NCBI GenBank assembly: GCA_030704615.1
Contig: CM060732.1
Location: 3,968,001 to 4,032,000, forward strand
Direction: 5' to 3'
Source of the DNA: Takakia lepidozioides
Lineage: Eukaryota > Plantae > Bryophyta
DNA length: 64,000 nucleotides
Under the pieces are notes generated by a model. The model saw only the letters and a list, made by a program, of their open reading frames with translations, did not search any database and had not been told where the DNA came from. The number at the start of each line of letters is the position of its first letter. Position 1 is the first letter of the stretch. This document shows positions 179-45,620 of this stretch, in pieces. The translations under genes and the position numbers were made by a program.

Positions 179-1320
179 TTTCTCCCTCTTGCTTCTTTAT
201 CTTGTTGGCGGATTTATGAGTCCCTGTGGATCAATAGCTACAAGAGACCAGCAGGGGTGGATGGTGCATGGGCACTCATAAAGGCACCTTCTTCTCACAT
301 CGATTGGTAGCAAGAGCAAGGAGCTGTCACGGCAAGGCAGCCTGAATGACACAAAGTGCTGTTGACTACTCATCTCAAGAGGTTTTCATGTTTGACAAGC
401 ACTATGAGTCCTTTGTGAAATCGGGCGAGGCTCCTTTAGCACCGTGAGTTGCTATGCTGCAGCAGTATGAACCAGCGCCTGCATCTGTTTCTGGCGACGG
501 ATGATCAGAGGGAGCCGGCAATGCTAAGCCTCTGCATTGGCTGACGGGTCATGACACAAAGTCAAGGACAATGTGGTGAGGGCACCTCTTCTTCAATCTA
601 TTTCAGCCTGGTTTGCCCTCTCATCAGACTCGTCCCTGATTTTGCATGTTGTATTGTGTAAGTTAGCTCGTTGGGTGGATCTATGGTGGTTTAGAGTGAT
701 TAGGGCCTGGTTGCCATCAACAATCAAGTGAGGAAGACCGTCAGTTCCACGCAACATTCGTGTCGAGGCATTTTTCTGCTCCCAAGTCCCCTGTACATCT
801 CCAAGTTGACGTTGCATTACGAAGGTGTCGGGGATATCTGCCAATCCACTGCTCTATGTAGAATGAGCTCCACATAAACCATGGCTGCTAAGGAATAGTT
901 GATTTGATGTTTGAATAAGTCATCACCCCACAATGACAAGCTCACCTCACGTGCCCTATGGCGGAAATGTTCGTCAATGCAGGAATGGTATTCCCCATAA
1001 AATTGCCCGCTCTATTGGCCACAGACGATTGATGTGATGCATTTTGACATATTGTTTGTATCGTGTCAAGGACCACTTGTCACCCACAAGAAAATGTGCC
1101 CACCTTTCCTCTGCCAAAATTACCCGGCTATGATATGCTTCCCAATTCACTTGGTGCCTTGCCCCTTTACGGTACCGCTTCTCGGATGGTCCGGCAAGCC
1201 CAGGATCTTCTGGTGGTTGACGCCGCCGGTCTTGACCTCCTCCAGACATTTTCTAGCACAAAAAATTCTACGCCACTACCAACCTTGCCTACAATGTATT
1301 TTTCGCAAACTTGTTAACTG

Positions 1321-1422
1321 TGTCAAGTTAAATAAACACAGTGTGAAACTAACTAGAATAAAACTAGTTATTTGTATTTAACACTTGGATTTAGTTCAAG
1401 TGTTAAGTCAGGTGTCAAGTTT
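1321..1422 (+). repeat. Terminal repeat A1 of copy 1
   Basis: Near-identical to 13207-13303 (5-bp indel, about one substitution). Contains short inverted repeats. Confidence 0.9.
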
Positions 1423-1987
1423 GAGCTTGACACCTGTACCATCTTATCTTCACGAGCGTCAGTCGCGCAGCGCATCTCTCTCGTTGAGCCTGCGCGACCG
1501 AGCTCCTTCAGTCGTTTAGAACTGAGTGTGCTTATGATGGGAGGATAGGTTTGTTGTGGGGTGGAGTCCCCCATAGCTTGGGGTGCCCCTGGCTCGACTA
1601 TTATCTGAAAGAGTGATGACGAGATGGATTTCATGTTTCTTGTGTTAAGAGTGTGTCCTTTAGCTTTTATCTCACTCGAGAGAGATGAGCTTGTTTCTAT
1701 GAGTGCCAGAGGTGAGTTTAGTTTTAGCACTTGTGGTTTTTGTTTTGAAAGTGAGAGAAGTGATTATCTGTGTTCAGGTAATTTTTAGTTAAAAAGATGT
1801 AACTTTGGCCACTGGAGCGATGGTTGAAAAGCGCGGTGAAGCCTTCTACTGTCTATCAGCGTTGTCATCATGGTTGCCATCATAAGGCTGACGGTGTGAC
1901 AATGGCGGCGCCTTCCAGTGCCTAGGTTGAACGTATATGCCCGGAGCATACTGGTCACCGCCAACCTGTGCATTACGTGCCACCGCC

Positions 1988-5200: not shown

Positions 5201-8200
5201 GGTGTTGATGTTTTGATTTCTTGTGTTTGGATCCCCCAACACCTGCATGCTTGACTGTGCGCCATGTTGTTTTGTGTGGGCGCTTGCTTTCATAGGGATT
5301 AGGCCGGATTTGATCACCGGTCAATCCTAGAGTATGCTGTCGTGGTGAGGCTGGAGTGATGACCAGCAAACCACCAGTGTTTCTTCTATGGTGAGGCTGG
5401 GTTGATGACCAGCCAACCATAGGAGTTCTTGCGGTGGATGCAGGTGCAGGTGCCCTGAGCCACTGGGATATGACCTTAAACTGCAACAGGTGCCCACCCG
5501 TGTCACACTATAGAATTAGTACTAGAGCATTATAGTGTCACGTGGGGGAGGTGCACATTGTGAGTGTCATCACGGAGTTACCCAGGGTTCTGAGGGAGTA
5601 CGGCTACAGGCAGTAGCGGTGAGAGTGGTTCACTAGACGAGGTGTTCGTTCAGACCACCTTCACTCCACCCTCAACTAGTGCAGAGTCAGACAGACACTC
5701 GGAGGCTTCATCAACAGGTGTGCAGTTTCATTCGCCATTGTTGTGGGACGACATGGAGGAGATGTATGGAGCTACCAAGGGGCCTCGTAGGTACTCTAGA
5801 GCTGTGGGCACAATCGAGTTGGATGACTTTATCTAGGAGTTCGACAGCTGGTGTGATTTGCAGCAGATGCGCAATCCACATATATTCACCCCATTCATGG
5901 CGTTGAAAGGACTGTTCCAGCATTTGGAAGGCCCGTCTATGGACGATTACCACGAGTTCAGGCGAGGACATGAAGTAGAGATTGAGGAGTAGAGGATGTA
6001 TTGGTCACCTGACTATGTCTCCATTACTCGAACACGCGACCAGTAGCTGCATCAGTACCAATATCTCCACTGTCCCACTAGTAGTGGAACAAGTAGTGCG
6101 GTACTTCTACAGGTGGGGTAAAAAGGTGCTACTACTCCTCCTGCCACGACTACAACACATGTGCCTAGATTCAACCCGGTGGTGGAGTTCTTTCAGGAGT
6201 TGCGGAGGAACTACCAAGGTGTACGGACAGAGAAGCTGCGAAGTTTGCAAGACTTCCAACGCAAACCCAATGAGAGCTTGCGAGAGGCCTACACTCGTAT
6301 GAGGCGCTTGATAAGTGTGACCCAAGGGGTTACTGAAGCTCAGGCAATCCAGTTCTGGTATGGAATTTTGGACACGGAGCTCAGGAGAAGGGTGCGGGAT
6401 GCAACCCTGTTACAAGCAGCCCAACCCACATTAGCAGATGTGTTTCTGCTGGCTGAGCGGATTGAGCTCAACATGGTGGAGGAGCGAGTTGTTACCATTG
6501 ATTTGGCAAAGACCCTGCAAGGCGCAGCTGCCAGCCCCACAGGCACAGGGACTGCCCACCAACATGGTCAGGGGGGCAAGGTTTCCCAACCCAAGTTCCA
6601 TGGAGCTTACAGGGGACCTCACGTGCAGAGGCCCGTGGCATCTTTTGCAGGCCAACAACAACCAGGGGTGATATGTTGGACATGTGGAGGACCCCATGTC
6701 AAGAGAGATTGCCCAGAGAGTGGTAGAAGGCCGGCACAAGCACAGCCTGCACAGTTGCAGTGTGGGCATTGTGGCATGGGCATGGAGATGCCCAGTGTTA
6801 TGACTTGCATCCTGAGTTGCGCCTAGGCCAGTTCCAAGGGAACAATGGTGGCCGGGGGCGAGGTGGACTAGCCCAGAGAGGACGAGGTGGTCGAGCACGA
6901 GGTGCAGGCCGAGGGCAAGCTCAACATGGCCAAGGACGCGGAGATCAGGGTGTTGACCAAGGCATGGTCAACCGGCTTCAGCAGCTAGAGCAGAGGCTCG
7001 CTGCCATGGCTACAGCTCAGGTGGTACCGGCTCCCAGGAAGGATGGTCCACCTCCTGCTCCTGAGGGAGGAGATATGGGAGACATGGGATTCATGTGTGG
7101 AGCAGCACTATCACTAGAGCAGGTGGAGTCTGCTGCAGCCGTGACTCGAGGAGCAGCATGAGTTCCTGAGCCACGAGGTGCAGAGGTGGAATTGGATCCA
7201 CAGCGTGGGGAGGCAAGCCATCAGGCGAGGCTTCCTCAGTCATTCACATTGGCGGAGACTGTGTCGATGCCATCCATGGCACCTAGTTCTCGCTCGACTG
7301 TTACCGAGGCGGAGGTTACTATGCCATTGGGGAGAGCTACACGTGCAGCACTGACACCTGCTACCAAGGCTAGTGCAGCCGGTGTGTTATTGGGGCAGCC
7401 ACCTCTGTGTGTCAAGCCCCACTGTTCTCGGCAACCATGATTGCGACGCCGGGGGTAAGACCAGCTGCAGTGTTAGACTAGCAGCAACACTCTGTGAGAG
7501 TGGGGAGGTCACTTCATCTTCTGCGGAGTTAGTGGAAGGTGTAGTGGCAGAGGGATCCTTGGAGTTGAGGGTCAAGACTGCCACGGCTACGCCATGGCAA
7601 GCTGCAGCGGCCAGGTTGACGGAGCTGCCCGCTAGGCCAGCCTTTGAGCGCGCCATGGTGACACCTGGAGTTGTCTTGTTAGACAACCATGAGGGCATTT
7701 TCTCATTGAGTGGACCGGCAGGCAAGAAGTACCGGGCCACTTCGGGTCTTGTTGGACTCAGGAGCTCAGCCACTGATGTTGGGCAGAGCTGCTATTGCAG
7801 GTTTGGGCCTCATGGAGGCGGATATGGAGCCTTGTCCTTTCCAGATACGACATCTCTGGGAGGATCAGAGCAGGCTCGGGGCATGACACGGCGTGAGTTG
7901 GCCATTGGACTACAGCCGGATCACCCTACAGATGGCTCAGTGATGCGAGCCAAGGCCATTGTGACAGACGCGGTCTCGTACGATGTCCTGGTTGGTGGGG
8001 CAGTGTTGTACCCCATGGGCTTCACCCTGGATTTTTGGGAGGAGTCAGCTTCCTATAGGCCTGGATGGCAGTCAGGGGAGGGTCGTCGTGTACAGCTCCC
8101 TGTGACATTCATTGGAGGTATTGCGGCTGCCAACGGGCAGGATGCCAACACTAGCCGCCTTTACAGCTGCAGTTAGTTGGCGTGGAGAGTTGCTGGAAGG

Positions 8201-8464
8201 CAATGCCCATGCAGAGGATGTGCCACCTTCAGCAGAGTAGGATGACATGCATGGTACGGCGGAGTTGCCTGCCATGGTTGCTCACACTCCATTATGGGGT
8301 ACGAGCAAGGATTTGCAGCAGGTTGCTGATGGACGGGTGCAACAAGCCTGGGTAGAGCCTTCGTACCGTTAGGAGAAGAGGAGAGTGCGGTGATTGCACA
8401 GGACCACCTCAGTTGTCGCCATTGGATACCACACCTCTTGTGTGGCAGTGCCCCGGATGAAGAC

Positions 8465-9420
8465 ATATGCCTTCTGGACTTGTTTGGCGGGATCAGCACT
8501 GGATTGGCTGCAGTACTGTAGGCAGGTGTACGAGTTCAACGTTACCTGTATGTGGAGAGGGATGAGACTGCACGACGCATCTCACTGTGCCATGTTGCTC
8601 AGTTGGTACAGCAGTACTACCCTGATTTTGTTGCCAGTGTCTGCTGCAGTTCGTGGATACAACAAGCCTTGTCAGCAGACATTTCGTTGCTGGGGGCGCA
8701 GGATTTGGAGCAGGTTGGCTCCATTGATCTGGTAGTGGCAGGTTGGCCCTGCCAAGGGCATTCATCAGCCGGGCATGACAATGGATTGCGAGACTCGAGG
8801 ACGGGTCTATTTTGGAGATGGTGCGGGTTTTGCGCCACTTGCAGCTTCATCAAGCTGTATCTCCAGCATACATCTTGGAGAATGTGCCACTGATGGGTGA
8901 TTCTCGGGCCAGGGTGATGGCCAGTGTGCATCAAGTCCGGTCGTGGCTTGTGTCAGCAGTGTTGCTGGATGCAGCTGCAATGGGATCACGGGCTCATCGT
9001 CCACGGCTATGTGGAACTGATGCCACCACACTGCTCAAGCGTGCATTTGATGGGGTGCAGCGGCCAACACACCTCATATTGGACAGCATTTTGGACACAG
9101 GGAGGCAATCTCAACGTGTGAGACACGATGACCGTTCGCCTTTGGTAGTGGTCAACAGGGTGGGTCAACCACGAGCAGCATTACCTACACTGCTCAGCTT
9201 CCCAGGATCCCATGCTTTTCGGGATGGTGGACCTGGCCTCCTGTGGGATGCTTAGTTGCAGCAGTTAGTGGAGCCTAATGCCGATGAGCAAGAGCGGGCT
9301 ATGGGGTTTTCCACTGGGATCACGGCGGTGCCTCCTCTTTCTGAGGCATCACGTTGTCAGGTGTTGGGGCAAGCAATGGATCTCAATTGCTTGACCTGGA
9401 TTATCAGCTTGGCTATGACT
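8465..9420 (+). pseudogene. DNMT3-like C5-cytosine methyltransferase domain within pol, copy 1
   Basis: Motif I LDLFGGISTG (8474); motif II YLYVERD; motif IV DLVVAGWPCQ (PC at ~8747); motif VI ILENVP (~8872); motif VIII AHRPRL; C-terminal EQERAMGF and RCQVLGQAMD, comparable to DNMT3 ERVFGF and RQRLLGRSW. Confidence 0.9.
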
Positions 9421-12400
9421 GAGCAACGTAGTGGTGCGGAGTGCACTTCCCTTGACGGTCTCTCTGCCTACCAAGACGGTACAGGCAGCGAGTGGGGGCG
9501 AGCCGGTGATGACCACAGGGTGTAGACATCCATGGCACACGTGGGAGGTGCTCGAGGTTCAGAGGGAGTTGGCAGCCAAAGCAGTTGTGATGGATGAGGT
9601 TGGGGATTCTTCTCGGGTTGATGAGGTCCTCAAGGATGAGATGATGGGGCAGGATGAGACCTTGTCATTGACTGAGCAGGCAGGGAGTACTGCTCAAGAG
9701 GTTGCGGCATAGCAACCACGGGACGTGTCCTCTACCTCTAAGCCCATTGGACTTAAGGTTGCAGGTACGGAGGACAATTGGGAGCCTGACATTAGACCCA
9801 TTGTCACCGGAGGAGAGAGACGACGTATATGGTGGTTCCTGAGGGCTTACAGGAATTGCTTTGCCTTCAGTTTGAAGGACTTAGGAGCACTGAAGGGTCA
9901 AGAGATTCGCATTGAATTGGCTACTGACACGCCAATCTTTCGGAGACCCTATAGATATAGTGACATGGAGAGGTCCTTGATTCAGATGAGAACTCAGGAC
10001 CTTTGGGAGGCTGGTTTGGTGGAGCTATCTGGGGGAGAGTATGCTTCAGCCACAGTGATGCCAGCTAAGAAGGATGTCTATGGCAATTGGACGGAGAGAC
10101 GTATGTGCGGTGATTACCGGCCTGTAAATCGTTAAAGAACCAAGTCCGATAGGTATGCTTATGCCGACACAGAGGAGATCTTTGTGCCATTTTGGGCACC
10201 AGGTCTACTTAGCGCCATTTAGCACGTTGGATTTACGATCCGGCATATCACCAATTTGCCGATCAAGGAGGCGGTAAGCAAAGACGGCATTCTGGGGGAT
10301 CATGAGCACGGGAAGGATTTCTGTACCATGGCTGTTCTTACCATTGTGCTTAAGAACGCTCCGACAGAATTTCAGAAAGTCTGGACAGGATTCTAGCAGG
10401 GGTGGAGTTTGCTCGGTGCTACATAGATACATCATCATTTTTTAGTGCTACGGTGGAAGAGCATGAGAGACACCTTCAGGGGTATTTTAGCGCTTGAGGG
10501 CGCACGGATTAAGTTTCACATCCGGAAAGTGCAAAAGTTTTTCCACAACCAGATTGAGTATCTGGGTCACATGACATATCCTGGAGGATTGGGGGTACAT
10601 CAGACTAAGTAGAGTCCATTCACAGGTTCCACGCCCCACGGATGTGAGCCGAGTTTCGAGCTTTCATGGGGTTAGCAAACTATTATAGACGATTTGTTAA
10701 GGGATTTAGTGCCATTGCAAATGCTCTAACCAAGCTGACCAAGGTGGACGGAGTGGCAGTGGGAAGATGAGCAAGAACAAGCTTTTCAAGAGCTCAAGGC
10801 GAGGTTGATCTCGGCGCCCATCTTGAACACCTATCAGGGGGCGTCCTTTTCAGCTTCATACATATTGGAGCATGCTATATCTTTGAGCGGTGCTCACACA
10901 GTGTATGATGAGGGAAGAGTTTCTTGTGGCTATGCTAGCCGCTCGAACAACGTTGCCAGAGTCTAAGTATACCTCATATGAGGGAGAATGCTTAGCTGCA
11001 GTGTGGGCCCGTGGCACACTTCAGGTGCTATCTATACGGAAATCTCTTCACTCTTGTCACGGATCCCCAAACCACTCAAGTGGTTGATGGAGTCAGACAA
11101 GCTTACGGGGAAGCTTGCACGGTAGGACTCATCCTTCAAGAGTATGACTTTCAGGTGGTGCATCGACCGGGTTTGTCAATCGCAATGCATATGGGTTGAG
11201 TCGCAATCCATACACGAGCCCAAGCATATGACACTGGAGCTCGGTGGGCATGGTGAGACGGACGAGGAGATGGTGCCCGGATGGCATGCATCTGCATTTC
11301 TGTGTATCTTGGCAGTGGAAGCCAGGTTGGACCTGCAACAGGGATGACTGTAGATAGAGTTGTCTGAGGACCCTGAGGCCAGCAATGAGCAAGGTGGCGC
11401 CAAAGATATACATGAGGATTCAGTTGTGTTGGACTACCCTCCTCACTGGAGACACTGTAGCCACTGTGACTGCCAAGGAGAGGGAATCGGATCCTACAAC
11501 AAGCCAAGAGTTTCAAGTGTGAGGGACACACCTACTCCGAGTGTGGGAGGATGGTCGAGTGAGGATTGTGCCTCACCCAACACAGCGGGCACGGTTTAGT
11601 GCGGCATGCCCATGAGGAGTTGGGGCATTTTTGGGTGCGACGCACTCATAGTCTACTGCAGCAGGGCAGTATTGGTGGCGTGGTATGCACACAGAGGTGC
11701 AACAATTTTTGGCTAGGTGCATGTGTGTGACAGGGTGCGTACTTCATTCAACGCCCCTACTCCACAATTGCACCCTCTTCCGATCATGGGATTGGGCTAC
11801 AGGTGGAGTCTTGACTTTGCAGGGCCGTTGCCACTGACCATGCGCCACAACAAAAATACGTGGGTGTTGGTGATGGAGCACTCTTCTCCAAGTGGATTGA
11901 GTTGGTTCCATTGCTTGATAAGGCTAGTGAGGGAACTGCCTATGCATTCTTGGATTGTGTGCTTAGCCGATTTCGGTGCTCCAGCTTGAGGTACTCACGG
12001 ACCAAGGGAGAGAGTTCTTGGGGGAGTTTCAGGCTTTGTGTGAGGCCTTGATAGACCACCGCACCACTTTCTCAGGATCATCCTGAGGGCCGATGGCTTG
12101 GCAGAGAGAGTTGTTCAGACAGTAAAGAGGGGTTTGCGCAAGTATGGCTTGCAGAAAAGACACCTAGGAGATTGGGACCTTCAGTTACCCTGGTTAGCCA
12201 TGGGCTACAGATTCAGCAAGCAATCATCACTTGCCTCCTTCTCACCATACTTTCTTCTCTTTGGCCGAGAGCCGGATTTGCCTACATCCATTCGCAGGGA
12301 AGCTGCTACAGTTCTTAACCTTGACGATCCGGACGTGTGGGTACGTGCATGTGAGCAGCGTGCAGAGTTGTTCAAGAAAGTCATGCCCATGGCTCTTGAG

Positions 12401-12715
12401 AACCTTGCCATTGCACAACACCGTGATACGTTGAGGTATGCTACCATACGTGGTGGGGGCTATCGTCCTGGGGTTCGGAGATTCAACCCTGGTGACTATG
12501 TCTATCTGCAGCAGACTGCTCCTACGACCTTGGATGTGACTGCTGGACGTGTTATTTTGAGGGTTCGAGAGGTCTTGCCCTCAGGCGTCTTGGTCTTGGA
12601 GGGTCGGGATGGCATAACTTGGAAGGACCATGTGCGTAATTGTGCGCCATGTCACCTTCCGAATGTCGATGGTAGGATTGACCCAAACCTGGCAATGGTA
12701 TCTGCAAGTTTGAGG

Positions 12716-12850
12716 TGCATGTTGTGTGGGTCTGCTAAAGGGGCAGCCACCATGCTGGTGTGTGATCGATGCTCTAGAGGTTGGCATATGGGATGCTTGA
12801 CTCCACCTCTTGAGATGGTTCCGGATGGGGATTGGTTATGTCCACAATGC
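12716..12850 (+). other. PHD finger at integrase C-terminus, copy 1
   Basis: CMLCGSAKGAATMLVCDRCSRGWHMGCLTPPLEMVPDGDWLCPQC is a C4-H-C3 PHD finger. Confidence 0.93.
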
Positions 12851-13108
12851 ATTGGATAGTGGGAGTGGATACAACCATGGGAGGCTAACAAGAAATGCAA
12901 GGCCAAGCTACTAGGAGACCTTGAACACACGAGATCCTAACTCAAGTTCACAGATTGCAAGACGGCGACTAACGATGGGGCTACTCTTGTACCCGACCTC
13001 TTGGTCTACAGAGTTTGAGTACAACAGGGCCAGTGATAGAGGACTTAGTACGGCTATGGCTACTACATCTTGTAGCTATCTGGAGTTAGAGGGACCTATC
13101 CACCTGTT

Positions 13109-13390
13109 AGGGGGGCGATTGTGGCAGACTACTTTATTGTGCATCTATGTGTGGTGTGGTTTGGACAGCGATGTAGTTGTGTAGCGATATGTATGTGCAC
13201 GACAGCTGTCAAGTTAAATAAACACAGTGTGAAACTAAATAAAACTAGTTATTTGTATTTAACACTTGGATTTAGTTCAAGTGTTAAGTCAGGTGTTAAG
13301 TTTATTGTGGCAGACTACTTTATTGTGCATCTATGTGTGGTATGGTTTGGACAGCGATGTAGTTGTGTAGCGATATGTATGCGCACGACA
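13109..13390 (+). repeat. 3' terminal module of copy 1: PPT-like tract, B1, GC, A2, AT, B2
   Basis: AGGGGGGCGA at 13109-13118; B1 13120-13204 (TG...CA); junction GACAGCTGTC 13201-13210; A2 13207-13303; B2 13306-13390. Confidence 0.88.
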
Positions 13391-13928
13391 ACTGAATTGT
13401 TAACAAGGGTTCCCAAGAGGGTGGAATGGAGAACTGTTGTCCCTAAAGTAGAGTAACACAAATTCTTCGGGAGGCCAATTTAAAGACCGATACTAGGTGG
13501 CCCGATTCAGCATCGACTACAAATGAACTTTTGGCCAAAATGGAGGAAATGGCCGAAATGGCCAAACTGCCCCTCTCCACCACCTCTGTAGCAGGGAATG
13601 CGTCGCATCCCAGGCCTACAAAGGTAATGGGCAGTGCAAAATGAGTATAATAAGGACTCCCCCCCCTCTTATATAGGGGTTCGGTAGGGCCAATCCTATC
13701 CCCATTTTCTGATATAACCCGACTAGTCCCCCCCTGCGCCATTGGCCCATGCCCTTTCATTTCTATTTGCTTATGTGCCAAAAAACATTATGATGAGGCA
13801 CGATTGGCTGGCGACCCGCCATATAATAGAACAAGCCTAAAACGACGATGGGCTCTCTTGTCGTGCGCATACATATCGCTACACAACTACATCGCTGTCC
13901 AAACCACACAACATATGTGCACACCAAA

Positions 13929-14196
13929 CACTAGTCTATCACTAGTGCACCACTAGGCTGCCACTAGACAACCACTAGTCACCACTAGTGCAGCCACTAG
14001 TCAACCACTAGGCTGCCACTAGCCACCACTAGTGCAGCCACTAGTGCAGCCACTAGTCCAACCACTAGGCTGCCACTAGCCACCACTAGTGCAGCCACTA
14101 GTCCACCACTAGGCTGCCACTAGCCACCACTAGTGCAGCCACTAGTCCATCACTAGGCTGCCACTAGCCACCACTAGTGCAGCCACTAGTCCATCA
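13929..14196. repeat. CCACTAG-based minisatellite inside terminal B segment of copy 2
   Basis: Alternating 10-12 bp units (CCACTAGTGCAG, CCACTAGGCTG, CCACTAGCCA, CCACTAGTCCA) form a ~44-bp higher-order repeat. Confidence 0.9.
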
Positions 14197-14440
14197 CAAT
14201 CGCCCCCCTAGTTGGCGCTTAGGTCCCTCTAAGTCCAGGTAGCCACAAGATGTGATAGTGGCCATAGCCTCACTAGGTCCTCCACCACTGTCCCTACTAC
14301 AAGAGGTCGGGTACAAGAGTTGCTCCATCGTTAGTCGCCGTCTTGCAACCTGTGAACTTGAGTCTGAGATCTTGGGTATTGACTCCTATGAGCTTGGCCT
14401 CCCAAGTCTTGTGAGCTGCCACTAGTCATATCCATTGCCA

Positions 14441-17400
14441 CTATCCCAAGCAGGGTGGACATAACCAATCTCCATCAGGAACCCTCTCAAGAGGTGGTGT
14501 CAAGCATCCCATGTGCCAACCTCTTGAGCATCGATCACATACCAGCATAGTGGCGGCACCACGAGCATGCCCACATAGCATGCAATGCAATCCTACAGGT
14601 ACCACTGCAAGGTTGGGATCTCCTCCCATCCACATATGGAAGGTGACATGGCGCACAATTGCGCACATGATCCTTCCATACCATGCCATCTTGACCCTCC
14701 AGAATCAACACTCCTGAAGGTAACACCTCCCTGACCCTTAGAATCATATGTCCTGCTGTGACATCCAAGGTCGTAGGCGCTGTCTGCTGCAGATACACAT
14801 AGTCCCCAGGGTGGAAACGCCGAACACCTGACCGATATCCCCCTCCACGTATAGTGACATACCTCAATGTGTCTCGGTGTTGGGCAATAGCAAGATTCTC
14901 AAAAGCCATAGGCATGACTCTCTTGAACAACTCTGCCCGCTGGGCACATGCTTGTGTCCACACATCCGGATCATCAAGGTTGAGGACTATTGCAGCCTCC
15001 CTACGAATAGATGTAAGCAAATCCGGCTCTCAGCCAAAGAGAAGGAAATATGGTGAGAAGGAGGCAAGTGATGCTTGCTTGCTGAACCTGTAGCACATGG
15101 CTAACCAAGGTACCTGAAGATCCCAATCTCCTAGGTGTCCCTTTTGCAAGCCATATTTGCGCAAACCCCTCTTCACCGTCTGCACCACTCTCTCTGCCAA
15201 GCCATCGGCCTCAGGATGATCCCGAGAAGTGGTACGGTGGTCTATCAAGGCTTTATCACACAAAGCCTGAAACTCCCCCAAGAACTCTCTCCCTTGGTCC
15301 GTGAGTACCTCAGCTGGAGCACCGAATCGGCTAAGCACACGATCCAGGAATGCATATGCAGCCCCCTCACTAGGCTTGTCAGGCAATGGAACCAACTCAA
15401 TCCACTTGGAGAAGTGCTCCACCATCACCAACACATATCTGTGGTGGCGTATCGTCAATGACAACGGCCCTACAAAGTCAAGACTCCATCTGTAGCCCAA
15501 TCCCATGATGGGTAATGGATGCAACTATGGTGTAGGGGCGTTGAATGAAGCACGCACCCTGTCACACACTATGCACCTAGCCACGAATTGTTGCACCTCT
15601 GTGTGCATACCATGCCACCAATACTGCCCCTGCAGTAAACTATGCACGCTTAAGCAGTGCGGGTGGCATCAAGTTAGTCCACCATAACCGTGGACGATGA
15701 GCCCGTGATCCCACTGCAGCTGCATCCAGCAACACTGCTGACCCAAGCCACGACTAGACTTGATGCACACTGGTCATCACCCTGGCCCGAGAATTGCCCA
15801 TCAGTGGCACATTCTCCAAGATGTATGCTGGAGATACAGCTTGATGAAGCTGTAAGTGGCGCAAAACCCGCACCATCTCCCAAAACAGACCCGACCTCGA
15901 GTCTTGCAATCCATTGTCATGCCCGGCTGATGAATGCCTTGGCAGGGCCAACCTGCCACTACCAGATCAATGGAGCCAACCTGCTCCAAATCCTGCGCCC
16001 CCAGCAAAGAAATGTCTGCTGGCAAGGCCTGCTGATATCCACGAACCGCAGACACCGGCAACAACTCAGGGTACTGTTGCATCAACTGAGCAACATGGCG
16101 TAGGGAGATGCGTTGTGCAGTCTTATCCCTCTCCACATATAAGTACCGCCGTACTCGTACACCTGCCTGTAGAACAACAGCCAATCCGGTGCTGATCCCG
16201 CCAAACAAGTCCAAAGGGCAAATGCCTTCATCCGGACACTGCCACACGATCGGTGTGGTGTCCAATGGAGACAACTGAGGTGGTCCTGGTGCAATCCCCG
16301 CACCGTCCTCCTCTCCTGACGATACAAAAGCCTCTACCCAGGCTTGTTGCACCCGTCGATCAGCAACCCGCTGGAAATCCTTGCTCGAGCCCCACGATGG
16401 AGTGTGAGCAACCATGGCAGGCAACTCCGCCATACCATACATGTTATCCTACTCTCTCGGAGGTGATACATCTTCTGAATGAGTGTTGCCATCCAACAAC
16501 TCTCTAGGCCAAGTCACTGCAGCTGTGAATGCTGCCAGTGTCGGCATCTTGCCTCGCTGGGCAACCGCAACTCCTCCTATGAACGTCACAGGGAGCTGCA
16601 CATGCCGGCCCTCCCCTGACTGCTATCCAGGCCTATAGGAAGCTGACTCCTCCCAAAAATCCAAGGTGAAGCCCATGGGGTACAACACTGCTCCACCAAC
16701 AAGGACATCATACGAGACCGCGTCTGTCACAATGCCCTTGGCTCTCATCACTGAGCCATCTGTAGGATGATCCGGCTGTAGTCTGATAGCCAACTCACGC
16801 CGTGTCATGCCCCAAGCCTGCTCTGACCCTCCCAGAGATGTATGTATCTGGAAAGGGCACAGTTTCATATCCGCCTCCGTGAGGCCCAAGCCTACAATAG
16901 CAGCTCTGCCCAGCATCAATGGCTGAGTTCCCGAGTCCAACAAGACCCGCAGTGGCCGGTACCTCTTGCCTGCCGGTCCACTCAAACAGAAAATGTCATC
17001 CTGGTTGTCTAACATGACAACTCCAGGTGTCACCATGGCGCGCTCAATGGCTGACCTAGCTGACAGCTCCATCAACCTGGCAGCTGCAGCTTGCCATGGC
17101 GCCGCCGTGGCAGTCTTGACCCTCACATCCGAAGATCCCTCCGGCACTACACCTCCCACTATCTCCGCAGAAGATGAAGTAACCTCCCCACTCTCACAGA
17201 GTGTCGCTACCAGCCTGAACACCTCAGTTGGTCTTACCCCCGGCGTCGAAATCATGGTAGCCGAGAACAATGGAGCCTGGCACACAGCTGTGGCCGCCCC
17301 TAGCAGCACACTAGCTGCCGTAGCCTTGGCAACACTACGTAGTGGTGTTGCCCGTGTAGCTCTCCCCAATGGCATAGTAACCTCCGCCTCGGTAACAGTC

Positions 17401-19009
17401 GGGCAGGAACTAGGTGCCATGGACGGCGTCGACACTGTCTCCGCCAATGTCAATGACTGAGGAAGCCTGGCCTGACGACTTGCCTCCCCACGCTGTGGAT
17501 CTAACTCCACCTCCGCACCCCGTGGCTCAGGAACTCGTGCTGCTCCTTGAGTCACTGCCGCAGCTGACTCCACTTGCACTAGTGGTAGTCCTGCCCCGCA
17601 CATAGTGGTAGTGGTAGTACTGCCCGACACTAGTGGTAGTGGTGCCCCACCCATAGTGGTAGTGGTAATGGCACCCCTCACTAGTGGTAGTGGTGCCCCA
17701 CCCATAGTGGTAGTGGTAGTGGCACCCCTCACTAGTGGTAGTGCTGCCCCGCACATGAATCCCATGCCTCCTAAGTCTCCTCCCTCAGGAGCAGGAGGTG
17801 GACCATCCAGCCTTGGAGCCGGTACCACCTGAGCTGTGGCCATGGCAACAAGCCTCTACTCTAGCTGCTGAAGCCGGTTAGCCATGCCTTGGTCACCACC
17901 CTGACCTCCGCGTCCTTGGCCATGTTGAGCCTGCCCTTGGCCTGCACCTTGTGCCTGGCCACCTCGTCCTCTCTGGGCTGCTCCACCTCGCCCCCGGCCA
18001 CCATTGTTCCATTGGAACTGGCTTGGGCGCAACTCAGGGTGCAAACCATAGCACTGGGCCTCTCCATGCCCGTACCTGCCACAATGCCCACACTGCACCT
18101 GTGCAGGCTATGCCGGTGCCAAACCATTGCCTCCCTCTGGGCAATCCTTCTTGACATGGGGTCCTCCACATGTCCTTACCTGAGCCCCCTTGCTGCCTTG
18201 AGCACGTTGAGGTAGTGGCTAGCTAGGAGCACCACTACCCCATGGTGCCTCCTTAGCAAATCCCACCATGACCACTCGTTCCTCCACCATGTTGAGCTCT
18301 ATCCGCTCTGCCAGCAAAAACACATTTGCTAAGGTGGGTTGGGCCGCTTGTATGAGAGTTGTATCCCGCACCCTTCTCCTCAACTCCTTGTTCAATATCC
18401 CATACCAGATTTGGACTACCTGAGCCTCTTGGGTTACATTAATCAAGCGCTTCATGCGAGTGAAAGCCTCCCTCAAGCTCTCAGTAGGCTTCCGTTGGAA
18501 CTCTTGCAAGCTCCTCAACTTCTCTGTCATCACCCCTTGGTAGTTCCTTCTCAACTCTTCGAAGAACTCCACAACAGGGTTGAAGGCAGGCACCGCCACT
18601 GGTGCTGGTGCAACAATAGCTTGGGTGGAAGTCGTAGATGTTGTACCACTAGTCTCACTACTGCTCGTGGAAGCTGTTGTTGTAGCTGCTGCTGCTGGTG
18701 CAGCTGCCGGTGTGGCTGCTGCCCTTGTGCCTCTAGTGATGGAAACATAGTCGGGTGACCAGTACATCCTCCACTCCTCGATCTCAACATCGTGCCCCCG
18801 CCTTAACTCATGGTAATCGTCCATGGGCGGCCCCTCAAGGTGTTGAAACAGCCCCTTCCATGCCATGAAAGGCGTAAACAGTTGTGGATTGCGCATTTGC
18901 TGCAGTCACACCAACTATCAAACTCTTGGATAAAATCATCCAACTCAATGGTGCCCACCGCCCCAGAGTACCTTCGTGGCCCCTTGGTGGCTCCATACAT
19001 CTCCTCCAT
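14441..19009 (-). pseudogene. gag-protease-DNMT(N-terminal part)-integrase-PHD remnant of copy 2
   Basis: Gag FQRKPTESLREAF; CGHCGRYGHGEAQC; VLLDSGTQ; LDLFGGISTG, GWPCQ, ENVP, AHRPRLWWTN (15645-16230). Then a direct jump to the integrase Zn-binding region at ~15643, followed by rve core and PHD. Confidence 0.88.
17563..17752 (-). repeat. In-frame 57-bp tandem repeat (GAxLPLVxGxTTTTTMx) in copy 2 polyprotein
   Basis: About three units in ORF 16623..17843; copy 1 has only one partial unit. Confidence 0.8.
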
Positions 19010-20202
19010 CGTGTTCCACAACAATGGCAAGGAAACAACTTGCACCGCCAATGTGAGTCTTCCTGATTCACAATCCGAATCAGAACCTTCCGTAGAAGAC
19101 ACAGGAGGTGAAGGTGGCCTAAACCGCACACCTCATCTCGTATACCCGCTAGTATCGCTAGTGCTCGTACCGGCACTTTCCCCAGCAACTAGTGGCACCT
19201 CCGTGTTGACAAATTGACACTCAACCGGTCATGAACATGTCTCTAACCCCCTCTCCACAAGGTAACCGGGTAGAGAACCTGATGCGGCTTATGGTTTGGA
19301 ATACTAGGTTCCTAACATAGCCTGCACCTGCACTTGCATCCACCGCAGGCATTCCTATGGTTGGCTAGTTATCACCTCCAACCTCACCACAGGAGAAACA
19401 AAGATGGTCTGACTAGTCATCAACCCAGCCTCACCATCGACAGCATGCTCTAGGGTGGGATCGGCGATAAAGCCCGAGTCCACCACCTATAAAATCAAGC
19501 GCCCACACAAAACTAGCATGGCGCACAATCAAGCATGCAGGTGTGGAGGGGATCCAAACACAAGAATGAAAACAACAACTCCCCCACACCAAAAATCTCT
19601 CCACAGTGTCGATCCTGCAACCCAGCCCAAACCCGGACTGACTCTTGCCTCCACCTACGGAAAGGTCTCGGCCTACAGAGAAGGTGGAAAGCTACGAGGA
19701 AGGGAAACTAGAGCAATGCCTATCCCAAGCACGCTCTCATCCCAACACCTTCTTTTTTCCTCTCTTCTCTCACTTGCATGACCATGAGAGCATCCTGTAG
19801 ACACTCCTCAAACCGCCCTCCACGAGCTCATGAAACTTGGCCTCCAAGGCCCCATGCAAGCCTCCACAGGGTCCGCCAGTGCCTCCTTACGTCCACCAGC
19901 CATTCCTCCGAATGGAGCCACCTCAGGAAACCACACCATTCGTTGAAGGTTAAAAAATGGAGCAAATAGAGGTACATATAGGCCCCAACAACATTCTGTC
20001 CAAAGGAATTACCTGCAGGCTGGTCTTCCCCATAGTTAAGAATTGGGCTGAAAACCCGAAAAGATTACCTGCAGGGAAGTAATCCCCTTTGTTAAAACGC
20101 AACAGGGAGGCAATTCCGACTTTTCTGCCGGATCAGCTAGCTCAAAACCGTTGTTCTTCAGAGCCCAGCCTCCCCATCAAGGTCCCACGAATCGAGTGAA
20201 AA

Positions 20203-20246
<44 letters not shown>

Positions 20247-21977
20247 AAAACTGTTCGCGGCCTTCCGTGGCTCCAACCGCCACGACTCCTCACGGCCCGC
20301 CCTAGGCACTCGTTGGCCACAGGCTGCCCAGTGATACCCCATGGTACCACTCCCACGAGCCTTCACGGCCCGCCATCCCCACGATCTGGTCACCGTGCCC
20401 ACCCGTTGTATCCGCACCACGACTTCCAACGGTCACGGTCAACGGTCACGGTCAACCATCACGACCTGGGCTCGTGGTATCTCGTGATGCCGCCCCAACG
20501 GCCCATCACGACCACTATTCCCTGCAATCCCTGGAACTCCCAACGAGTTCTCATGCATTCCCGAGGCGTTCCCGGCGTTCCCACGCGTTCCCGAGCTGGG
20601 GTTTGCTCCTGCACCTGCTGCCGCTGAGCTATGGCTTCTGCGGAGCCATCAGCCCCGTCGCCCTGCACTCCTGAGCTCTCACGGCCCACTAGAAGTGCCC
20701 CCAACTCAACAAGCAAGCTATATGCTGCCCAACAAGCTCCCTTTTCTTCATGAAGCTCACAAAAACAAATCTGAATATACACACCTTTACAAACTTGGTG
20801 CACCTGCACTTCTCATGCATCTCCCTTGGCTCTAGGGCGCCTCGTTGCTGCCCTTCCAGCCCCGCTCTTGCCACTCCAAGAGCCCTTACACTGCAGAGTT
20901 TCAGATTGAAACTCCAACTCAGCATATGTTTCACAAGTGCACTGATTTGCACACAAGGGGGACCAGCCCCCTCTCTTCACTCATACCTCTTCATGAGCTT
21001 GGAGCTGAAGCTCCCAACGGGCTGCGATGCATCTCCTCGCAGCTCAACCATTCGGTTGTTCTTCATCTACCCGCAACAACTGATTTCGGGCAGAAATACT
21101 TGGAGCTGATCATGTCATCTCCAACTTGCAACATGTTAGCTTCCATGCGCAGCCCACATTTCTGCAGCTCCTTAACTCGGCCTGCAGCTGAAGAAGACGA
21201 CCACCAGTTCACCCACTCGTGGCCAACATTTCCTCCGCTTCACACTAGAAGCCAAAACTTGGTTGCCATAGCGTTGAGCTATGCAACGCCGCTCTTCAAC
21301 ATAGGCTATCCGCCTCTATATCCATGGCAAACCTGCAACCTGTTCGTCTTTGCACTCTATCCGCTTTGGATAGGCTCATGCACGGCTCCCTGCAATCTAG
21401 GCTGAACCGCTTCTCATGATCTGAAAACACAAGTGCTACAACTAACTCGAACCTGACACTCATAGACTCGAGCTGATCTTTCTCGAGTGATAAGGAAATG
21501 AATGATACAAGCATACAAGCTCTCTCAAACTCACACACTCGCACATGAAAACATCACTCATATATTAAGTCGAGCCAAGTGCACCCAACGCCATGGAGAA
21601 TCCACACTACGGCGCCATAGCTAGACGCGGTGAGGCTCAACTCAAGAAAGATGAGCCCACCGCGATTTGCCGTGAAGATAACAACGCCAGGTGCCCAAAC
21701 ATGTATTGGCCCCTGGATTGACACTTGGGTCAATCCCAAATGTCAATATATAAAAGCTAGCTATTTCCTAGCTAACTTCACACTAGTGGTAAAATAACTT
21801 GACACTCTTGCTTTGGCAAAACATACAAGAAGGTGAGAGTAGGGGGCATGACTCAGCACAATCGGACCAATTGGTGCCTTGACACGGTGTAAGGTCCTTT
21901 GACCAAATTTTCTCCATTGACTTGAACATGCTGCAAAGTCTCTCTCTGCCAGAGAGCCAACAAATATAATGCGTTTT

Positions 21978-34531: not shown

Positions 34532-35356
34532 CCTTGGCTTGCGGTCCCAACACTATGGTACGCCCATCCTTTTCGGATAGTAGAATTGTACTGCTGCAAG
34601 TAGTTCTGACTCTGGCCACAGAAAGGTCCGACTTATGTCTTGCCTACCAGTAACCTGTTTTGCTTGAACTAAGATAATACTATGTCATTCACTCGTGTTT
34701 CCACGTGCATGTATTTTTGTGTGTTGGAGGGTTCCTATTTTTTCTGCTCTCCCAAACTTGGCTTTCCTCATTTGACCCCCGGCAAGGAAATGCGGCGCCG
34801 CATTTCCAAGTAACGTCGTAGGTACTGGTAGATGCGGCATTCACCAACACCAAACTGCCTAGAAATTTCGCACGTGCGAACCCTAATGCGGCACCGCATT
34901 TCCCAGTTGAGTCGCAAACCTTTCCCGCCGAATACTCGAAGATGACAGAATTGTGCAGACTCTATTTGTTCAATCGCGGCAAAAGGGTCAGCTTCATTCC
35001 AATGTTAAGGCATGTAAAACCGCGGAATACTCTATACAGGCTAGTATGCGACGTCCTTTTGCCGTGGTATACTGGATTTCTCGTTGCACGGTCACTCATT
35101 TCCATGAGCGGATCTAAAAAACCATGAGCGGAGTTGTTATTGACGACATATCTTCGCCGCATTACAGGATCTGGAACTTCCAAAAACGGCAAGGTCAAAT
35201 TAAAAAACTATTATTTTAATACTTATTTAATCTGTCGCATTTCCAAATTTGGAGGAGTCCGCTCATGGAATCCGCGTGTCTTAGACTTCGGCTCACCGCT
35301 CATGCGGCTCATGCGGCTCCTGGCTCATGGCTCATGGTTTCTGCTCATGAAATAGT

Positions 35357-38300
35357 AAACCTCCTCTCAAAGCATGAAGCAATCACACTAACAAGCCCTA
35401 GTCCTTCCAAGTGAAATCCACTCTATCACATAAACTAAGTCAAGCCAAGGGCACCCTTGCTAAGGGAATATACCCTACAAAGCCCTCAACACACTCCCTC
35501 TCAATACCTAGAGCTATGGAGGTGAGAGAGGCTCATGGAGGCTCAACTACAAGAAGATGAGCCCTCCTCAACACTCACAAAAAACCCCTTTCCCATGTCC
35601 CAAGTGAGGCTTGATACCTCACTTGGCATATGAGACCAAATGAAGTCCCAACACACAAAATACAAATATAAATATCCAAAATGTCATAGTTAACTAGAAG
35701 TAGGTAATTCTAGTTAACCATGACTAAAACCATGACAGCTGTCGTGCACCTAAGCATCGTGCCACAACATACATCAGTGTCCACCACATATTCTAAGCAT
35801 ACAGTCCTAGAAAGCTATGCCACAATCGCCCCCCTAGCTGGTGATTAGGTCCCTCTAACACCGGATAGCCGACAAGTATCCATCTCAATAAGATCATCGT
35901 TTGGTCTTCAATCACACAAGTCCCAACATCTAAAATCGATAGATCAAGAGGCCGGGTGCAAAAGTAGCCCCATCATTAGTCGCCTTCCTGCAATCCATGA
36001 TCTTCAGTTGAGTATCCATGGCATTGAAGCCCCACTAGCTAGACCTTGGATCACTTGTCAGTCTCACCATTGCCATGCCCACTACCTCTGTCCAAGGCAT
36101 CGTGGACACAACCACTCTCCGCTAGGAACCTCCTCAAGTGGCGGTGTTAAACATCCCATGTGCCACCCCCTTGAGCATTTGTCACACACCAACATGGTTG
36201 CGGCACCACCAGCATGCCCACATAGCATACAACGCAACCCTACAGGTACCACTGCAAGGTTGGGATCTATCCTCCCATCCACATGTGGGAGATGACATGG
36301 CGCACAATTGCGCACATGATCCTTCCATACCATGCCATCTCGACCTTCCAGAAGACAACACTCCTGAAGACAACACCTTCCTGACCCTTAGAATCACACG
36401 TCCTGCTGTGACATCCAAGGTCGTAGGTGCTGTCTGCTGCAGATACACAGAGTCCCCAAGGTTGAATCTCCAAACACCCGGTCGATATCTGCCTCCACGT
36501 ATGGTGACATACCTCAATGTGTCTCGGTGTTGGGCAATAGCAAGGTTCTCAAAAGCCATAGACATGACTCTCTTGAACAACTCTGCCCGTTGGGCACATG
36601 CTTGTGTCCACACATCCGGATCATCAAGGTTGAGGACTACTGCAGCCTCCTTGCGAATAGATGCAGGCAAATCTGGCTCTCGGCCGAAGAGAAGAAAGTA
36701 AGGTGAGACCGAGGCAAGTGATGCTTGCTTGCTTGCTAAACCTATAGCCCATGGCCAACCAAGGTAGCTGAAGGTCCCAATCCCCTAAGTGTCCCTTCTG
36801 CAAGTTATACTTGCGCAAGCCTCTCTTGACTGTCTAAACAACTCTCTCCGCCAAGCTATCAGCCTCGGGATGATCCCGAGAAGTAGTGCGGTGGTCTATC
36901 AAGGCTTGCTCATACAAAGCCTGAAACTCCCCCAAGAACTCTCTCCCCTAGTCCGTGAGTACCTCAGCTGGAGCACCAAATTGGCTAAGCACTCAATCTA
37001 AGAATGCATACGCAGCCCCATCACTTGCCTTGTCAGGCAATGCCACCAGTTCAATCCATTTGGAGAAATGTTCCACCATCACCAGCACATACTTGTTATG
37101 GCAAATCGTTAGTGGCACTGGCCTGCAAAGTCAAGGCTCCAACGATAGCCCAAACCCATAATGGGTAAAGGATGCAATTGTGGAGTAGGGCGTTGAAAGA
37201 AGCCCGCACTCTATCACACACCATGCATCTTGCCACTAACTGCTGCACATCTGTGTGCATGCCCCGCCACTAGTACTGCCCTTGCAGCAAACTATGAGTG
37301 CGCCGCACCCCAAAATGTCCCAACTCCTCATGGGCATGGCGTACCAATCGCGCTCGTTGTGTTGGATGAGGCACAATCCTCACTCCTCCATCCTCCCATA
37401 CACGGAGTAGGTGAGTCCCCTCCCACTTGAACCTCTTGGCTCGTTGTAGGATCCGATCTCTCTCCTTCGCAGTCACACTAGCTGTTGTCTCTCCGGCACG
37501 AAGATAGGCCAACACTGCTGCATCTTCATACACATCCTTAGTACCACCAAGCTCCTCATTGATCTATGGATCGTCATGCACACTATCTCCACGGCCAATC
37601 CCATGGGGTGGACCAGCTTGAGCTCCCATTGCTAGAATGCACAAAAAGGCAGATGCGTGCCATCCTAGCACCATCTCCTCGTCCATCTCACCATGCCAAC
37701 GAGCTCCTGTATCATCAAGCTCACTTGTGCATGGATTACGACTCAATCCATCCGCATCCCGGTTGACTATACCGGCTCGATGCACCACTTGAAAGTCGTA
37801 CTCTTGAAGCATAAGTGCCCACCGTGCAAGCTTCCCTGTAAGCTTGTCTGACTCCATCTACCACTTCAATGGTTGGTGATCCATGACAAGTGTGAAGAGA
37901 TTGCCATAGAGGTAGCATCTGAAATGTGCCACTGCCCATACTGCAGTTAAACACTCTCCTTCATATGAGCTCTACTTTGCCTCAACATCATTGTTCGAAC
38001 GGCTAGCATATGCCACTACAAACTCTCTTCCTTCGTCATCCACTTGTGTGAGCATTGCTCCAATCCCCAACATACTCCAATCTGTATGTAGCTGGAAAGG
38101 CCGCCCCCGAATAGGCCGCCTCCGAATAGGTCGCCTCAGAATAGGTGCAGAAGTCAATCGAGCCTTGAGTTCCTCAAAGGCTTCCTCCTGCTCCTCCTCC
38201 CACTGCCACTCCTGACCCACCTTGGTCAATTTGGTAAGAGCCTTCACAATGCTGCTAAATCCCTTGACAAACCGACGATAGTTGTTTGCCAATTCCATGA

Positions 38301-39883: not shown

Positions 39884-40189
39884 TGGCGGTTTGCTGCAGG
39901 TTTCGCTTGAGAAGACTGGCGGAGAATTGCGGCCCTACTTTGCAAGAGAACAACGTCTGCAGGTTTGTTAACACTTGCAGGACCTGTCTTGGCAGCCTCA
40001 CGGATTGCATGCGTATAACTCGTGCATCCGGGGGTGTATTCATCAGCAGTCCTTTTTTGGTTGTGGACTCCTGGGCTGCCTCCTCCATTGTCTCGTCGTT
40101 GGGGCCAGTCTGCTGCGCCCCAGCAGAGTCCGAGTATTCCTGGACAGGAGGAGACGGGGCAGACTCCTCCGCATGTGGAGTCGAGACTG

Positions 40190-40470
40190 GTACTGCAGGA
40201 GACTGGGCAGTCTGCTCCGCATGGGGAGTCTCCAAGTTTGATACCTGAGCTGCAGCAGACTGGACAGTCTGCTCCGCATGGGGAGTCTCCAAATCCGATA
40301 CTATAGTTACAGCAGACTGGATAGTCTACTCCGCATGGGGAGTCTCCAAGTCCGATACTGGTGCTGCAGCAGACTGGACAGTCTGCTCCACATGTGGAGT
40401 CTCCAAGTCCGGTACTGGTTTTGGAGGAGACTGGCCAATCTGCTCCTCATGGTCAGTCTCCATGTCCGTT
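40190..40470 (-). repeat. 57-bp coding-like tandem repeat (ETPHAEQTVQSAAAPVSDL)
   Basis: About five units of GCAGACTGGACAGTCTGCTCCGCATGGGGAGTCTCCAAG-like sequence. Confidence 0.75.
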
Positions 40471-45565: not shown

Positions 45566-45567
45566 CT

Positions 45568-45579
45568 TGGTATCAGAGC
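45568..45579 (+). promoter_or_regulatory. Primer binding site (initiator tRNA-Met)
   Basis: TGGTATCAGAGC lies 2 nt after the 5' LTR. Confidence 0.92.
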
Positions 45580-45620
45580 TTAGAGTTCAGTATGTGATCG
45601 TCCTTGACATCGGCCTCACC

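Follow-up and report, generated by a model that had tools for sequence, protein, structure and literature searches.

A moss Gypsy retrotransposon family with its own DNMT3-type cytosine methyltransferase and a conserved stop codon before the reverse transcriptase

Anatomy of the element and its split repeats

The window, by which we mean the whole stretch of 64,000 nucleotides of Takakia lepidozioides DNA that was analysed, contains three copies of one retrotransposon family, all of them broken. Copy 1 is a dead Gypsy retrotransposon, and its family carries its own DNMT3-type C5 methyltransferase (DNMT). The coding layout comprises a first open reading frame (ORF1) for Gag, protease and DNMT, a stop, and then reverse transcriptase (RT), RNase H (RH), integrase (IN) and a PHD finger. 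The family is abundant in the host (52,180 contigs of run X1 over 6.2 kb, a summed contig depth and not a copy number), and its repeats differ at 6 of 303 positions. The features of the three copies are as follows.

1317..1320, + strand: left 4-bp target-site duplication of copy 1; the same four bases recur at 13391-13394
1321..1674, + strand: repeat A1, running from TG to CA; probably the promoter-R-U5 portion of a split long terminal repeat (LTR)
1473..1483, + strand: putative self-primer; complementary to 11 nt at 1677-1687, with pairing that covaries in copy 2 and relatives
1675..1687, + strand: primer-binding-site position, immediately downstream of A1; pairs with the element's own repeat A and is not the usual tRNA-Met site
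5753..7100, + strand: Gag (Retrotrans_gag PF03732, E 3.5e-4, weak and below the curated cut-off); broken, end approximate
7735..8080, + strand: aspartic protease region; DSG motif at ~7755, bounds approximate
8465..9426, + strand: DNMT3-type C5 methyltransferase domain; unrearranged motif order, pseudogenised in copy 1
9710..9718, + strand: conserved in-frame stop, TAG CAA CCA, matching CAR-YYA; end of ORF1 and likely readthrough site
9713..12859, + strand: ORF2, with RT, RNase H, integrase (zinc finger, DDE core) and C-terminal PHD finger; many frameshifts in copy 1
12716..12850, + strand: PHD finger (E 3e-11)
13109..13117, + strand: polypurine tract (PPT)
13118..13204, + strand: repeat B1; starts right after the PPT, ends CA
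13201..13210, no strand: 10-bp palindrome at the B/A junction; right end and left end of the element joined by two bases
13207..13303, + strand: repeat A2, shortened to about 100 nt in copy 1
13304..13390, + strand: repeat B2, the right end of copy 1
13859..21804, - strand: copy 2, in the A-internal-B form; 4-bp duplication at 13855-13858 and 21805-21808; deletion from mid-DNMT to integrase
35348..39883, - strand: copy 3; a shortened A joined to the C-terminal part of the DNMT, then RT-RH-IN-PHD, PPT, B, palindrome and A2

The Gag region has zinc-knuckle-like Cys/His motifs and an RGG tract. No Asp_protease Pfam match was found in the window fragments, and such matches appeared in the relatives P0126, P0348 and P0272. 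The many indels in the RT region of copy 1 could reflect decay or assembly error. Among solved structures, the closest to the PHD finger are CHD4, PHF12, KDM5B/5A and ATXR5, and the finger may steer integration. As the integrase C-terminus has a PHD finger and not a chromodomain, assignment to the chromoviruses was rejected.

Copy 1 has the form A-internal-PPT-B-A-B and copy 2 the form A-internal-PPT-B, each with TG..CA ends and exact 4-bp duplications; no B2 of copy 3 was found within the window. Among the loci there were 11 distinct insertions with both ends, eight of them with exact 4-bp duplications, two with one mismatch and one ambiguous. Six of these show A-int-B-A-B (L039 with a partial A2) and five show A-int-B, a form that could arise by B1 x B2 recombination. 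The original prediction had tied the DNMT to permuted LTRs, a link borne out by the A-coding-B-A-B order of copy 1 and of the six distinct insertions.

Since B follows the PPT without a gap and A terminates in CA, B plus A corresponds to an ordinary LTR, and the ends of the element sit at the palindrome inside that LTR. The B2 copy joins the LTR right end to the left end, as in a circle junction. This arrangement suggests that the integrase quite probably cuts at the internal B/A palindrome instead of at the cDNA ends. A B repeat preceded the 5' A repeat in 0 of 26 loci, so the element lacks the two complete terminal direct LTRs of a conventional LTR retrotransposon. For the same reason we rejected a symmetric two-LTR circle cut at either palindrome, which predicts A-B-A-internal-B; the pattern points to some asymmetry.

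The sequence following A1 is complementary to a segment of A. In 12 of 26 decayed loci this pairing extends over 9-14 exact bases and lies where expected; it covers 8 bases in one more and is short or elsewhere in the rest of the 26. Copies 1 and 2 keep this pairing with different sequences, and in relatives the self-primer segment is found some 30 bases downstream of a TATA-like box. These pairings argue for reverse transcription that is probably self-primed. A hairpin at 1409-1436 was dropped as a candidate primer site, since it lies inside repeat A. The A2 of copy 1 (13207-13303) ends at the loop of this hairpin in A1, and the hairpin is kept in copies 2 and 3 with different sequences. As described in the accessible text of PMC6317226, the sequence after the 5' repeat also pairs inside the repeat in Tf1/sushi elements and the plant Tcn1 chromoviruses, but these have ordinary full LTRs, a chromodomain and no DNMT, whereas the present element has split repeats, a PHD finger and a DNMT.

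Other element classes fitted less well. Troyka requires CG..CG ends and 3-bp duplications (accessible text of PMC12440569), and the element has TG..CA and 4 bp. DIRS, Ngaro and PAT were rejected on the presence of Integrase_H2C2 and the D-D-E residues (rve in relatives) and on the 4-bp duplications; a six-frame search of the 5' regions in copies 1 and 2 turned up no tyrosine recombinase. The literature search found no paper on 'Lusen', another possible split-repeat Gypsy group.

Copies 1 and 2 have peculiarities of their own. Copy 2 seems mosaic: measured against copy 1, dS is 0.23-0.25 for protease-DNMT, 0.7 for integrase and 1.2 for gag. The integrase of copy 2 is nearer copy 3 (dS 0.38), and this pattern suggests recombination between subfamilies. 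Repeat B of copy 2 contains a tandem expansion (22/44-bp array, 13930-14200, - strand), and an in-frame 51-bp array lies upstream of its protease (17577-17756, - strand). The 4-kb 5' region of copy 1 includes a captured-looking fragment of a 60S acidic ribosomal protein (1979-2215, + strand; PF00428, E 1.3e-11) and a poly(A) run at about 4034-4051. The 5' insert of copy 2 is unrelated to that of copy 1 and has its own poly(A) run near 20205-20245 (- strand). Both inserts look like captured host mRNA.

The methyltransferase domain and its conservation

The original prediction had reported seven ordered C5 methyltransferase motifs between protease and RT, and all seven were recovered in that order at 8474-9378. 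Six-frame translation of copy 1 (+ strand) places LDLFGG at 8474-8491, VERD at 8552-8563 and GWPCQ at 8741-8755, with the catalytic Cys codon at 8750-8752; ENV follows at 8878-8886, AHRPR at 8992-9006, ERAMGF at 9292-9309 and VLGQAM at 9361-9378. Motifs I, IV (PC), VI (ENV), VIII (RxR), IX and X are thus present in unrearranged order, between the protease motif (DSG, ~7755) and the RT (from ~9770). The Pfam search that had been proposed as a check gave matches to PF00145 above the curated cut-off of 22 bits in two of the five scanned DNMT fragments, 8378-8848 (E 4.2e-8, 33.4 bits) and 15640-15933 of copy 2 (E 1.3e-6, 28.5 bits), and no match in fragments 8779-9432, 15915-16478 and 39599-39790.

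In copy 1 the domain is interrupted by two stop codons (8519 and 9253) and further damaged by a net change of frame near 8815 as well as by short shifts that are compensated. Its predicted recurrence in the other two copies was found only as pieces: copy 2 (~15644-16235) retains the N-terminal two thirds, followed by the deletion into the integrase region, and copy 3 (39594-39763) the last two motifs, fused to that copy's 5' repeat. Copies 1 and 2 differ at just 45 of 586 aligned bases in the domain and therefore lend each other weak independent support; the strong support comes from outside relatives. A 105-aa piece of copy 2 matched 51 database proteins, the best at 77% identity (E 1.8e-44) and many at 65-77%, and the similarity is therefore not due to chance. 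Named matches to this piece came from Calypogeia fissa, Marchantia polymorpha and Sphagnum.

For fold and affinity we turned to P0001, an intact relative. A model built from 102 sequences reached a mean pLDDT of 94.6 (an earlier one, from a 14-sequence alignment, gave 39.5 and was left unused). Its best structural matches were DNMT3A/3B (Z 29.2, rmsd 2.5, 273 residues aligned), and a bacterial CpG methylase (Z 25.7) and M.HhaI (Z 24.2) ranked lower. A sequence search of solved structures with P0001 returned DNMT3A first (E 6e-12), then DRM-type enzymes, then HhaI and DNMT2. A profile search gave 5e-25 for DNMT3A, 2e-15 to 4e-12 for DRM-type enzymes and 1e-9 for HhaI, with DNMT2-type RNA methylases scoring far under DNMT3. 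By sequence and fold, tested on P0001 and its alignment, the domain is nearer DNMT3 than DRM, DNMT2 or bacterial enzymes. It shares the catalytic fold with the host DNMT3 and DRM enzymes known from plants, but lacks introns and accessory domains, and its motif order, unlike that of DRM, is not permuted.

The catalytic Cys was found in 141 of the 146 near-complete domains (the other five have a gap there). The ENV Glu was retained in 145 and the two Arg of motif VIII in 141 and 142; 65 domains have Glu in place of the Pro of the PC motif. The comparison of substitution rates across copies that had been suggested gave a dN/dS of 0.30 for copy 1 against copy 2 (173 codons) and 0.12 for copy 1 against copy 3 (51 codons), and the catalytic Cys was kept in those 141 relatives. 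Against outside relatives, pN was 0.18-0.23 at a pS of about 0.75, where synonymous sites are saturated, and the RT behaved alike. Close pairs of dead copies gave a DNMT dN/dS of 0.41-0.76, as decay predicts, and are not supportive of selection. Codon comparisons at these wider distances nevertheless show the hallmarks of purifying selection acting upon the DNMT domain, and the family enzyme is very probably catalytically active. With outside relatives, 146 conserved domains and purifying selection, the proposal that the DNMT is a stable module of the family was upheld.

A conserved stop and the wider family

The DNMT had been placed inside a polyprotein with the RT. The two do share a frame, but a conserved stop separates them, so the DNMT ends ORF1 and does not lie within one open pol. 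We therefore read ORF1 as Gag-protease-DNMT. The counterpart in copy 3 is TAG CAA TCA at 39235-39243. The survey set comprised 80 metagenome loci and window copies 1 and 3 (82 sequences), 52 of them with an RT N-terminal match. A stop followed by CAA, in frame and 11-14 codons before the RT start, was present in 47 of these 52 (TAG-CAA in 31, TAA-CAA in 16); the loci are mostly of one subfamily and several are one insertion assembled twice, and those that count as independent are copies 1 and 3 of the window, L015 and the main subfamily. In 27 of the 82 it was the first in-frame stop encountered beyond the DNMT, and the RT continued in that frame; the remainder were truncated or broken. Among 1,397 host contigs of run X1, no difference at 3% or more was listed for positions 9708-9719, and positions 9706, 9707 and 9720 vary. 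Since no such difference falls on these bases while their neighbours vary, the stop is a state of the family and not decay.

Relatives outside the window behave similarly in part. Named liverwort proteins (Marchantia, Calypogeia) terminate 78-82 aa beyond the DNMT. In K. nitens, KFL_013780020 (Gag-knuckle-protease-DNMT) terminates 12 aa beyond it, and KFL_013780010, the adjacent gene number on a contig of equal length, encodes RT-RH-IN. The stop is not universal: DNMT and RT share one open frame in the algal P0068, P0272 and P0249 and in Closterium models.

Stop-codon readthrough is used for gag-pol in MuLV and env in SIRE1. In the present element the stop falls after protease and DNMT, which differs from a stop between gag and protease. 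The CAR-YYA context is the readthrough signal of TMV, and UAA too is read through in plants (accessible text of PMC2754532). As with the TMV-type UAG-CAR-YYA (PMC2754532), the ratio of two products would be governed by the in-frame stop and the CAA behind it. The likeliest reading of this arrangement is that RT-RNase H-integrase-PHD is expressed by readthrough, which we consider probable.

A search with P0001 at E <= 1e-30 gave 269 clusters (50% identity), in two architectures. Type A, with the DNMT before the RT, includes the window element, liverworts, Closterium and K. nitens; type B, a chlorophyte sister group with the DNMT between RNase H and integrase, includes Scenedesmus and Volvox. 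Trees were built with FastTree and rooted at the midpoint, and we therefore claim no order of events; the DNMT tree holds element domains only. In it, all 74 type-B domains form one clade (support 0.83). In the RT-RH tree, type A and Klebsormidium group with support 0.94 and type B with 1.0, and the DNMT-bearing elements stand apart from 47 other sampled Gypsy elements (1.0), a sample without named Tcn1 or Tf1 sequences. Both trees split the same two architectures. The Gypsy domain order PR-RT-RH-IN is present in the window element, whose RT groups with the K. nitens elements (0.94). The suspected kinship with Klebsormidium elements is thus confirmed, by this RT-RH grouping and by the 37% identity of KFL_013780020 to P0001.

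The element belongs with the KnitGypsy-Dnmt3 clade of Klebsormidium and has relatives in Marchantia, Calypogeia, Sphagnum and Closterium. Of the relatives that have a name, elements of liverworts are the closest. Ferns, lycophytes, hornworts and seed plants were not represented among the named relatives, which is weak evidence of absence. Related DNMT domains (P0105, P0290, P0377 and P0378) occur in models whose names point to Scenedesmus, Volvox and Haematococcus, and in one with the label Mesvir1, which is likely Mesostigma.

The concept of such elements has been known since 2018. The accessible text of de Mendoza et al. 2018 (PMC5890265) describes KnitGypsy-Dnmt3 of K. nitens with the same repeat plan and the DNMT in a Pol ORF with RT and RNase H, and treats the DNMT as an acquisition in the K. 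nitens lineage. KnitGypsy-Dnmt3 and the window element share the Gypsy domains, an unrearranged DNMT3-type domain, the A-coding-B-A-B arrangement and purifying selection (PMC5890265). The window element differs in its land-plant host, its abundance and the stop between DNMT and RT, whereas KnitGypsy-Dnmt3 has both in one Pol ORF (PMC5890265); since one K. nitens locus corresponds to two gene models, the published one-ORF description may not cover all K. nitens copies. We found no mention of 4-bp duplications, a palindromic junction, self-priming or a PHD finger for KnitGypsy-Dnmt3 in the main text of PMC5890265, as far as it was accessible. SymbioDIRS-Dnmt3, described there, is likewise a retroelement with a DNMT3 and split direct repeats, but integrates by tyrosine recombinase (PMC5890265), whereas the present element is marked by a DDE integrase, by TG..CA ends and by target duplications.

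'Gypsy-DNMT3 of streptophytes' are named in bioRxiv 10.64898/2026.05.21.726589, and PMC12344493 mentions such elements in 'streptophytes', in both cases without land-plant detail in the accessible text; the supplementary trees of the two may include bryophyte sequences. The accessible text of PMC11982613 held nothing relevant. Our literature search, with most subscription papers and Repbase outside its scope, returned nothing that dealt with members in land plants, with the stop, with the anatomy of the ends or with type B. The range in land plants, the probably leaky stop, split ends of the integrase type and the second architecture therefore appear undescribed. The suggestion that the element's presence in this host and its permuted LTRs might be new seems to hold for the land-plant range and the end anatomy, but not for the repeat plan, already present in KnitGypsy-Dnmt3 (PMC5890265). 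Acquisition of the DNMT seems to go much further back, and to extend much more widely, than a single charophyte lineage. Split ends would hide an abundant family from standard LTR finders, and where element DNMTs are annotated in bryophytes they can raise the apparent number of host DNMT3 genes.

Proposed role of the enzyme

The family bears on why retrotransposons keep a silencing enzyme; the 2018 study could not show activity of a Gypsy-borne DNMT3. The Klebsormidium domain gave no methylation in yeast, in an assay that its authors called inconclusive, and DNMT3 domains of Symbiodinium elements methylate CG de novo in yeast (PMC5890265, accessible text). Because intact-looking ORF1 copies exist in transformable Marchantia polymorpha, the role of the enzyme can be tested in its own host.

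Since ORF1 stops right after the DNMT, the enzyme is likely made at Gag level, and the position of the stop predicts a high enzyme dose per particle. In the mechanism we propose, a transcript starting in A1 would encode Gag-protease-DNMT, and occasional readthrough would add RT-RH-IN-PHD. The DNMT would be packed at high dose where cDNA is made, would be freed by the protease (a putative step) and would methylate the cDNA at CG inside the particle. New copies would then arrive pre-methylated, and so might resemble host heterochromatin or limit their own expression. That the cDNA is the main substrate has a slightly better than even chance. We lean modestly towards the joint reading of a dead Gypsy copy whose Gag-protease-DNMT3 ORF1 ends at a conserved stop, with DNMT likely at Gag level, RT-RNase H-integrase-PHD likely from occasional readthrough, and an enzyme that likely methylates CG in its own cDNA inside the particle.

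Evidence from CG depletion for self-methylation is mixed. At synonymous sites in the window, C was kept before G in 28 of 281 codons of the element family against 38 of 84 in a neighbouring ordinary Gypsy (P 9e-12), with similar CHG retention (0.39 and 0.48); this control is one element (44841-52904), with LTRs diverged at 38 of 713 positions and older than the family repeats (6/303). The CG contrast was not repeated in the metagenome loci (0.11 for the family against 0.14 for a small control of 351 codons), and host methylation alone can therefore give such CG loss.

An active DNMT might instead work mainly on host chromatin, methylating the insertion site or host loci either in complex with integrase-PHD or after release from Gag. 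The fingers most like the integrase PHD are those of CHD4, KDM5 PHD1, BHC80 and UHRF1, which, like the ADD of animal DNMT3, read unmodified H3 tails, and a readthrough product would join DNMT, integrase and PHD in one chain. Most DNMT, however, would come from ORF1, without the PHD; the CG loss is in the element itself; and the K. nitens methylome is ordinary and plant-like in the accessible text of PMC5890265. We consider host chromatin an unlikely main target. A separate doubt concerns the expression of ORF2, which with the same DNMT could depend on reinitiation, an internal start or splicing. The full CAR-YYA occurs in only 4 of 47 stops, and 42 are CAA-CCC, most with ATG next, so that reinitiation would be allowed: the main subfamily has an in-frame ATG two codons past the stop. 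Annotated Marchantia models (P0017) bypass the stop by predicted splicing. Yet window copies 1 and 3, L015, L033 and L070 have no ATG there and keep stop, frame and CAA, and one contig of a possibly-RNA run (its RNA status guessed) spans the stop uninterrupted. For the DNMT stretch no RNA data set was listed, and run X14, possibly RNA, had no coverage of 8542-9162; neither observation bears on expression. Such routes remain a minority prospect, somewhat stronger than that of host chromatin, beside readthrough.

That the domain is kept for particle nucleic-acid binding or RNA methylation seems improbable to us. Gag-level expression would suit a structural part, the PC-motif Pro is Glu in the 65 relatives noted above, and the Klebsormidium domain was negative in the yeast DNA assay (PMC5890265, accessible text); the catalytic Cys, the Glu and both Arg are nevertheless nearly invariant, and DNMT2-type RNA methylases score far below DNMT3. 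A neutral passenger, namely a host DNMT3 fragment captured once and now decaying, would accord with the ribosomal protein piece also captured by copy 1 and with breakage in three of three window copies. It is refuted by the conservation data, and we give it almost no credence: there are 269 clusters at E <= 1e-30, the two architectures come out apart in the DNMT tree and in the RT tree alike, and dN/dS is low at saturated dS.

The palindrome contains CG and CHG, and only the 5'-adjacent palindrome was ever seen as an element start. A much bolder picture, which we offer as a long shot, is of an ancient Gypsy lineage spread across green plants (chlorophytes, Klebsormidium, Closterium, liverworts and mosses) and built around its own DNMT3 at two polyprotein positions. 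Its land-plant members would combine a Gag-level enzyme made via a leaky stop, self-priming and integration through an internal palindrome, and the DNMT might mark the other palindrome copy, shielding it from integrase like a self-made restriction-modification switch.

Several neighbouring features were noted in the window. The ordinary Gypsy at 44841-52904 (+ strand) has 725-bp LTRs (38 differences in 713), no DNMT match and a primer site that we take to be of tRNA-Met type. Two long ORFs at 31662-33999 (+ strand; 523 and 280 aa) have no Pfam match, and the first resembles MULE-type transposases, a lead only; on these grounds they were rejected as an extra antisense ORF of the DNMT element, and the element that contains them may interrupt copy 3 just past A2. 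Arrays of tandem repeats occupy 40100-40500 (period about 57 bases), 43200-43750 (about 120) and 60736-62204 (about 106), the last being also self-complementary.
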